A DNA stretch of 64,000 nt from Escherichia coli O127:H6 str. E2348/69 (GTDB lineage Bacteria; Pseudomonadota; Gammaproteobacteria; Enterobacterales; Enterobacteriaceae), in the NCBI RefSeq assembly GCF_000026545.1, contig NC_011601.1, one strand, 5' to 3'. This document shows positions 34,692 through 34,969 of this stretch, piece after piece; positions within the stretch are counted from its first letter, which is position 1, and each line of letters opens with the position of its first letter. The translations under genes and the position numbers were made by a program. The notes below the pieces were generated by a model that did no database searches, had not been told where the DNA came from, and saw only the letters and a list, made by a program, of their open reading frames with translations.

Positions 34692-34720
34692 TTGCAACAT
34701 TGATTTCGTAACGTTATTAT
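34692..34720 (+). promoter_or_regulatory. near-consensus sigma-70 promoter for the tRNA cluster (TTGCAA-17 bp-TATTAT)
   Basis: -35 at 34692-34697, -10 at 34715-34720, tRNA starts at 34730. Confidence 0.7.
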
Positions 34721-34729
34721 CCTGCGCCC

Positions 34730-34805
34730 GGCCCTTTAGCTCAGTGGTGAGAGCGAGCGACTCATAATCGCCAGGTCGCTGGTTCAAATCCAGCAAGGGC
34801 CACCA
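34730..34805 (+). tRNA. tRNA with CAU anticodon (tRNA-Ile2/Met type, ileZ-like), CCA encoded
   Basis: Acceptor stem ggccctt/aagggcc, T-arm gctgg-ttcaaat-ccagc, anticodon loop ctCATaa. Confidence 0.85.
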
Positions 34806-34806
34806 A

Positions 34807-34882
34807 CCGCCACTAGCCATCAGGAAAGAGCGTCAACCCTTTAAGTTGAGTGTGCGAGGTTCGAGTCCCCGGTGGTGGTCCA
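34807..34882 (+). tRNA. tRNA-like sequence of uncertain identity (good acceptor and T arms, weak D-arm, anticodon loop ccTTTaa)
   Basis: Acceptor ccgccac/gtggtgg with CCA; anticodon stem tcaac/gttga; D-stem has only 2 clean pairs. Confidence 0.4.
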
Positions 34883-34895
34883 TTATCGGTATTCT

Positions 34896-34969
34896 GCGTT
34901 GTTAGCTCAGCAGGACAGAGCAATTGCCTTCTAAGCAATCGGTCACTGGTTCGACTCCAGTACAACGCG
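34896..34969 (+). tRNA. tRNA-Arg (anticodon UCU)
   Basis: Acceptor gcgttgt/acaacgc, T-loop ttcgact, anticodon stem attgc/gcaat with loop ctTCTaa. Confidence 0.85.

Follow-up and report, generated by a model that had tools for sequence, protein, structure and literature searches.

The closest described relatives of the locus analyzed here are the tRNA clusters of Shiga-toxin (Stx) phages such as Stx2a_F349, phage 2851 and phages of the 933W type, in which ileZ, argN and argO lie after the antiterminator gene Q and before the stx, nanS-p and lysis region, with a promoter in front and a terminator behind. The cluster type is already known: 288 phage records match it, mostly of Stx-converting phages in which the genes carry these three names, and of 5,426 complete E. 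coli genomes 3,060 contain matches, at 7,588 places in all. A search of the open-access literature found no paper naming ileZ, argN and argO together, and a search on prophage clusters of tRNA-Lys, tRNA-Thr, tRNA-Gly and tRNA-Ile found nothing relevant. A second relative is present in prophages with the Q229 module (strain 4/4, phages vB_EcoS-689R5 and PhiR47_1), where the cluster reads ileZ, tRNA-Lys(UUU), thrU’ and glyT’; the tRNA-Lys(UUU) gene of this cluster belongs to a sublineage that is called X in what follows. A third comparison is with the tRNA-Lys(UUU) of T5-like phages. Both PrrC and the PARIS nuclease AriB attack host tRNA-Lys(UUU) (PMC11464382, PMC11555353, PMC12409363), and the T5-like tRNA resembles X in carrying the targeted host anticodon together with substitutions at the positions read by these nucleases (39-41 and 16 for AriB, 33 for PrrC). 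However, the T5 tRNA is a normal and experimentally functional lysine tRNA, whereas X is a candidate from its sequence, with an arginine-tRNA body, C33 and U73.

How does the locus in E. coli O127:H6 str. E2348/69 compare with these systems? The window, which is the whole 64,000-nt stretch of contig NC_011601.1 that was analyzed, contains a compact operon of a promoter, three tRNA-shaped genes and a terminator. This is the late-region tRNA operon of an E2348/69 lambdoid prophage, located between Q and the lysis genes, and it is the counterpart of the ileZ-argN-argO cluster of Stx phages. Gene 1 is homologous to ileZ (CAU) and is 100% identical to that of Stx2a_F349 (0 differences), and gene 3 is homologous to argO (UCU) with only 2 differences. 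The middle gene is a homologue of argN, from which it differs at 13 positions: instead of the UCG anticodon with U33 of the Stx-phage tRNA-Arg, it has UUU with C33, two exchanged anticodon-stem pairs and a deletion of T12. With the Q229-module prophages the window shares the Q module, the promoter, ileZ and the first ~69 nt of the X allele; it differs in that T12 is lost, in a G3-U70 pair where those prophages have G3-C70, and in carrying argO after the middle gene where they carry host-identical copies of thrU and glyT. Relative to the T5 tRNA-Lys, the copy in the window additionally has a collapsed D stem.

The tRNA operon and its prophage setting

The gene order annotated by PGAP places the locus in the late region of a lambdoid prophage, since hokD, DUF968, RusA, the Q antiterminator, tRNA-Ile and tRNA-Arg are followed by the ISEc13 transposase, a DUF1737/SASA/DUF6645 esterase, holin, lysozyme and terminase. 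The neighborhood, with Q directly upstream and holin, lysozyme and terminase downstream, is that of the ileZ-argN-argO cluster type. Over the 371 bases at 34650-35020 the cluster and its edges are 100% identical to the chromosome of the enteropathogenic strain E2348/69. Feature positions are collected in Table 1.

Table 1 Features of the tRNA operon and its surroundings, in window coordinates.
Feature	Position	Strand	Evidence or description
DicF RNA	24011-24062	-	Rfam, 72.5 bits
Second Q-family antiterminator gene	28810-29331
Three co-oriented ORFs (197, 142 and 363 aa)	29328-31478	-
sok antitoxin RNA	31655-31830	+	Rfam, 117 bits
Late antiterminator Q gene (229 aa)	33845-34534	+	ORF list; Pfam Phage_antiter_Q, E=3.5e-91; PGAP
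Predicted pR’-like late promoter, TTGCAA-17-TATATT, overlapping the Q end	34518-34546	+	Consensus scan
tR’-like terminator between Q and the tRNA promoter, GC-rich hairpin and T run (AAAACCCGCCCACAAGCGGGTTTTTTT)	34596-34627	+	Sequence
tRNA operon, promoter to terminator	34692-35011
Sigma-70 type promoter of the tRNA operon, TTGCAA (34692-34697), 17 nt, TATTAT (34715-34720)	34692-34720	+	Consensus scan
ileZ, tRNA-Ile2 (CAU; reads AUA after lysidine modification)	34730-34805	+	ARAGORN; Rfam tRNA, 72.5 bits; PGAP tRNA-Ile
Middle gene, X allele with T12 deleted, mosaic by alignment	34807-34882	+	ARAGORN (UUU); alignments; Rfam search
argO, tRNA-Arg (UCU)	34896-34970	+	ARAGORN; Rfam, 68.1 bits; PGAP tRNA-Arg; alignment with Stx2a_F349 argO
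Intrinsic terminator, GGCTCGC TTTT GCGGGCC then T8	34986-35011	+	Scan; conserved in Stx2a_F349
ISEc13 (IS4 family)	35100-36484		End repeat CTGTCTCTTGATCAGATC at 35100
ISEc13 transposase	35111-36484	-
STnc100 RNA	36620-36796	+	Rfam, 75.5 bits
617-aa protein with DUF1737, SASA and DUF6645 domains	37019-38872	+

The promoter-like site that overlaps the end of Q is assigned as a putative pR’ from its placement directly 3’ of the gene, and together with the hairpin that follows it would form the arrangement expected of pR’ and tR’. The scan reported this hairpin on the minus strand, and it is conserved in strain 4/4. The operon’s own promoter had been recognized in the first-pass annotation and is confirmed by the consensus scan, with the correction that TATTAT ends 9 nt, rather than 10 nt, before the first tRNA. 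To place it in context, 114 related prophage clusters were collected via the 3’ end of ileZ. A TTGnnn-(16-17)-TAnnnT element ends 9-10 nt before ileZ in 109 of these 114 clusters, with a -10 of TATTAT in 107 and a 17-nt spacer in 106, and because it is kept despite 44 different versions of the upstream sequence it is more than a chance match. With a sigma-70 promoter and a terminator of its own, the operon is probably transcribed from that promoter in the lysogen, while during lytic growth Q-modified polymerase would read through it as part of the Q-antiterminated late transcript.

Both outer genes are canonical tRNAs, as the first-pass annotation had proposed from a hand folding, and each is matched by the Rfam tRNA model at an E-value of about 1e-14. 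An identity of gene 1 as tRNA-Met was considered and rejected on the basis of its homology to ileZ and the PGAP assignment as tRNA-Ile. One of the argO differences lies in the T loop (TTCGACT versus TTCGAAT), and the encoded 3’ CCA of Stx2a_F349 is changed to CTA (34968-34970), an end that would have to be trimmed and then completed by the CCA-adding enzyme during maturation. Codon use in the annotated prophage genes amounts to 11.7 ATA, 12.5 AGA and 6.8 AGG per mille, compared with E. coli averages of roughly 4, 2 and 1 per mille, respectively. This several-fold enrichment fits the classical role of codon supplementation, in which ileZ (AUA) and argO (AGA/AGG) would supply decoders for the codons enriched in prophage genes.

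Downstream, no stx genes follow the cluster; the window has ISEc13 and a nanS-p-like esterase gene instead. ISEc13 begins ~90 nt after the tRNA terminator, in the slot where Stx phages carry stx, and in related PPompW prophages a different insertion sequence (ISEc20) occupies about the same place. The 617-aa protein, whose SASA domain denotes a sialate O-acetylesterase, resembles the NanS-p-type esterase encoded downstream of stx in Stx phages, and its presence marks the late region as Stx-phage-like without stx. The Rfam search also located sok, DicF and STnc100, all of which are small RNAs typical of lambdoid prophages. Three ORFs run antisense between a second Q-family antiterminator gene and hok/sok and form a moron-like cassette, possibly an accessory or defence operon; when a tRNA nuclease that could account for a resistant tRNA was sought in the prophage, these ORFs gave no Pfam match and one weak PADLOC match (PDC-S54, E=0.0014).

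Structure and descent of the middle gene

The middle gene begins 1 nt after the CCA of ileZ. ARAGORN calls it tRNA-Lys(UUU) and folds it with a 7/7 acceptor stem (one G-U pair), a 5/5 anticodon stem closing the 7-nt loop c-c-t-t-t-a-a, a T stem with 4/5 pairs and the loop TTCGAGT, and a D stem in which only G10-C25 and C11-G24 pair. This drawing agrees with the first-pass hand fold, which had reported good acceptor and T arms, a 2-bp D stem and a C at position 33. In a search of 400 nt, the Rfam tRNA model (RF00005) gave no match to the middle gene even at E<=10, and the best match within the clan was tRNA-Sec at 15.7 bits (E=2.1), compared with a tRNA gathering score of 29. PGAP leaves the gene unannotated in E2348/69 and, among the matches listed, in identical copies; as PGAP uses tRNAscan-SE, its annotation of only tRNA-Ile and tRNA-Arg at this locus indirectly speaks against a canonical fold. 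The earlier suspicion of a pseudo-tRNA or an unusual tRNA is thereby borne out. Compared with a canonical elongator tRNA, the middle gene has the 7-bp acceptor stem, the 5-bp anticodon stem with a 7-nt loop and a T arm with GTTCRANYC, and it lacks a score above the covariance-model threshold, a D stem of 3-4 bp and U33. As a tRNA-Lys(UUU), it has the U34-U35-U36 anticodon, which is the main identity element for LysRS, and a U at position 73, where the discriminator A73 is part of tRNA-Lys identity for LysRS.

Folding energies tell a similar story. Minimum free energy (MFE) folding was uninformative, since of five sequences only argO returned a cloverleaf and both ileZ and the reference argN did not; cloverleaf energies were thus evaluated directly. 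For the window copy, the cloverleaf is at -18.3 kcal/mol, 5 kcal/mol worse than the MFE of -23.3 kcal/mol, and this value is the same with or without the D-stem pairs, such that no stability comes from the D stem. The cloverleaf of intact X, at -25.5 kcal/mol, equals its MFE (-25.0 kcal/mol).

The X sublineage, defined by this anticodon arm, is normally 77 nt long with an intact GCTC/GAGC D stem, as seen in scans of viral contigs, and its usual setting is the four-gene cluster ileZ-X-thrU’-glyT’. Intact X, with T12 kept and a 4-bp D stem, reaches 44.4 bits against the Rfam tRNA model (argN, 56; a related Arg-UCU form, 57.8) and is present in ~600 complete E. coli genomes, where PGAP labels it tRNA-Lys. 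The window copy matches it at 75/77 positions, with one base deleted and one substitution in the acceptor stem. The contrast between an annotated allele at 44.4 bits and an unannotated, sub-threshold copy in the window points to damage in the latter. In the main form of the X clusters, thrU’ and glyT’ match the K-12 host genes at 100% identity. This pair (L006:1944-2097, compared with thrU/glyT at NC_000913.3 4175388-4175747) has no intervening tyrU and a spacer of only 3 nt, and from its sequence it looks like a fragment of the host tufB operon that was captured by the phage and then trimmed.

What is the origin of X? Its identity is highest with the Arg-UCU form (68/77), followed by argN (65/77), and is 47/77 with host K-12 lysT. 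The Arg-UCU form, whose loop is CUUCUAA, occurs in the same four-gene context at five loci, which supports derivation of X from it, most likely by the changes U33C and C35U. Relative to argN (loop CUUCGAA), the middle gene (loop CCUUUAA) has an A-U in place of a G-C pair at 30:40 and a compensated U-A in place of U-G at 27:43. Aligned together, 30 distinct argN, UCU and X sequences agree with the cloverleaf: 96.5% of cells are paired, four pairs change on both sides and the anticodon stem is fully paired (100%), values that lie far above slid-partner controls. When the X anticodon arm was searched in one genome per species, only 4 matches were obtained, in unrelated organisms, and these are read as chance. 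The X lineage is young and limited to the E. coli prophage pool.

The window copy carries a further junction. Upstream of the junction, from Q to the end of the T arm, the window is of the four-tRNA type (strain 4/4), and from the 3’ acceptor strand onward (GGTGGTGG, spacer, argO and terminator) it is of the Stx2a_F349 type, with the crossover lying within 22 nt common to both parents, GCGAGGTTCGAGTCCCCGGTGG. Judging from these alignments, the middle gene is a mosaic with a 5’ part from X and a 3’ acceptor strand from argN. The sequences document a step-wise history. The ancestor was a tRNA-Arg of the argN family, most like the UCU form; U33C and C35U then gave the X loop, with the compensated anticodon stem retained; a 1-nt deletion of T12 took away half of the D stem; and recombination in shared T-arm sequence joined the X 5’ part to the 3’ end of argN, argO and the terminator. 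The middle gene is an undescribed, though already annotated, argN variant, and the oddity that the first-pass annotation had singled out is, by sequence comparison, no isolated one, since a prophage allele that descends from the argN family of tRNA-Arg genes and is widespread has here lost part of its D stem and recombined.

The exact window allele is present in ~220 complete genomes, including EHEC strains of O145, O111 and O103 along with E2348/69, and among the matches listed the only PGAP annotation under the allele is tRNA-Ile. The T12-deleted allele occurs in two cluster contexts, followed either by argO or by thrU’, the latter in two viral contigs with the same deletion.

Decay of the middle slot and the case for a pseudo-tRNA

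Across the 114 ileZ-anchored clusters, the middle slot holds Arg-UCG in 63, X in 13 and Arg-UCU in 3, while in 31 of the 114 it is an 80-101 nt segment in which ARAGORN finds no tRNA although argO is intact. In such wrecks the anticodon arm has been replaced or deleted. Because argO is retained where the slot has become unrecognizable, the middle slot appears to be dispensable; it decays repeatedly, and this supports the window copy as another step on the same path. Disruptive polymorphisms are found in the prophage copies of thrU’ and glyT’ at a rate similar to that of X at the same loci, so sequence decay alone neither singles out X nor decides whether intact X functions.

The commonest wreck, seen at L023:2345-2444 and some 25 loci like it, has GCAGACGACACGATAACAGGGTTGTTGG in place of the anticodon arm and retains both acceptor strands and the CCA. 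In some four-tRNA clusters (L099:8503-8578, also L126 and L138) the thrU’ anticodon is changed from TGT to TTT, giving a perfect lysine-type loop, CUUUUAA, on a threonine-tRNA body, a second independent switch to UUU in this operon.

Our preferred reading is that the window copy is probably a co-transcribed pseudo-tRNA inside a working operon. The combination of C33, a two-pair D stem and a mismatched T stem would prevent normal folding and work as an elongator, U33 being conserved in elongator tRNAs (PMC5041475). Such a pseudo-tRNA may persist through its position between two useful genes, and the acceptor and T arms, which are intact, could still provide an RNase P site that helps to free ileZ. 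Several observations count against this reading. ARAGORN does call a tRNA-Lys(UUU), and the middle gene carries that name in DDBJ entries for identical PPompW prophages. The exact allele persists unchanged in ~220 genomes and in two contexts, which fits recent spread and is also compatible with retained function. Tertiary contacts could partly rescue the weak D arm. Nor is C33 necessarily lethal, since eukaryotic initiator tRNAs carry it (PMC5041475), and U33C was without effect on recognition of the anticodon stem-loop by gamma-toxin (PMC5041475, PMC2275089). Candida tRNA-Ser(CAG) with G33 offers a parallel in that, as in X, the anticodon is mismatched to the body and the base at 33 is a rare non-U (PMC5041475); however, it is a eukaryotic, proven decoder with another base at this position, so the analogy is a loose one, and attenuation of a mismatched tRNA by C33 may be taken from it as a lead.

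Alternative readings and implications

A fundamental question is whether the middle gene might still act as a tRNA. One alternative hypothesis, which we consider unlikely, is that it is a working, unusual lysine tRNA that is charged by LysRS through its UUU anticodon and serves the phage by escaping, through its Arg-type body and altered anticodon arm, host nucleases that destroy tRNA-Lys(UUU), such as PrrC and AriB. Intact X lies above the Rfam threshold and is annotated as tRNA-Lys in its ~600 genomes, and in a relative (L099) a further gene of the cluster has also switched to UUU. PrrC cleaves at 33|34, a site flanked by C33 of X. AriB requires U36-A-A-U-C|A41 and U16 and cuts at 40|41 (PMC12409363), and these determinants are absent from X: the host tRNA reads U39-C40-A41 with U16, and X reads G39-U40-U41 with C16. 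X combines the host-targeted anticodon UUU with substitutions at recognition and cleavage sites, as expected of a counter-defence tRNA, and phage tRNA-Lys variants are known to rescue phages from PARIS and PrrC (PMC11464382, PMC11555353). Moreover, UUU with A37 and A38 is kept in 119 of 119 X copies that were gathered without using the anticodon arm. However, the invariance of loop positions 33-38 in these 119 copies is not significant (31% of other sites vary, P about 0.11) in a young lineage, and the absence of X from all species-representative genomes leaves deep conservation without support. The U73 discriminator of X departs from the A73 of tRNA-Lys, and a common T8C haplotype and further disruptive X alleles are in circulation. 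For the window copy itself, the deletion of T12, the two remaining D-stem pairs and the failure with both Rfam and PGAP stand against a working tRNA, and this structural damage argues against a role in restoring translation or phage growth. A coherent anti-PARIS set formed by the Lys(UUU) and Thr(UGU) pair was rejected, as thrU’ and glyT’ are 100% identical to K-12 and thrU’ keeps the AriB site UAAUCA. We regard as doubtful a wider reading of intact X, in which its anticodon switch and C33 would be no product of drift: X would be a nuclease-proof lysine decoder, built on a recruited arginine scaffold, that nucleases of the PrrC, RloC or PARIS type fail to recognize. It would then be the equivalent, in temperate phages, of the counter-defence tRNAs of T5, and the window copy would be a recently inactivated or attenuated version.

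Another hypothesis gives the middle gene a role other than decoding. As a tRNA-like processing element, it would offer RNase P and 3’-end sites in its acceptor and T arms, through which ileZ and argO would be freed from the polycistronic precursor; as a decoy, its RNA would bind and titrate a tRNA-targeting enzyme. The 1-nt spacing from the ileZ CCA is consistent with this idea, as are the 7/7 acceptor stem (with one G-U pair) and the 4/5 paired T arm of the window copy and the retention of both acceptor strands and CCA in heavily damaged versions elsewhere. However, retention of the stem ends can also be explained by recency, and two clusters that have lost most of the slot (L037 and L058) still keep ileZ and argO, and we judge this explanation to be improbable. 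That the segment is a spacer with no relation to tRNAs, and resembles one by chance, would agree with the lack of an Rfam tRNA call, but it is refuted by the alignments and has next to no probability: homology to argN is clear, with most of the 77 columns identical and the acceptor and T arms in common, and 75/77 positions match intact X, which is itself recognized as a tRNA at 44.4 bits. The pseudo-tRNA reading is the one that we carry forward.

For annotation, the locus reads as ileZ, a probable pseudo-tRNA of the argN family and argO, and annotators disagree on the middle gene, which ARAGORN-based records list as tRNA-Lys and PGAP omits. The middle slot of this prophage operon, which is very common, turns over quickly, holding Arg-UCG, Arg-UCU, UUU with C33 or wrecks, while the flanking genes remain almost unchanged. 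With its switch from an Arg to a Lys anticodon, this phage tRNA offers a modest yet concrete example of tRNA gene remoulding. Finally, if intact X were a nuclease-resistant lysine tRNA, counter-defence by tRNAs would extend from large lytic phages to the temperate lambdoid phages of pathogenic E. coli.
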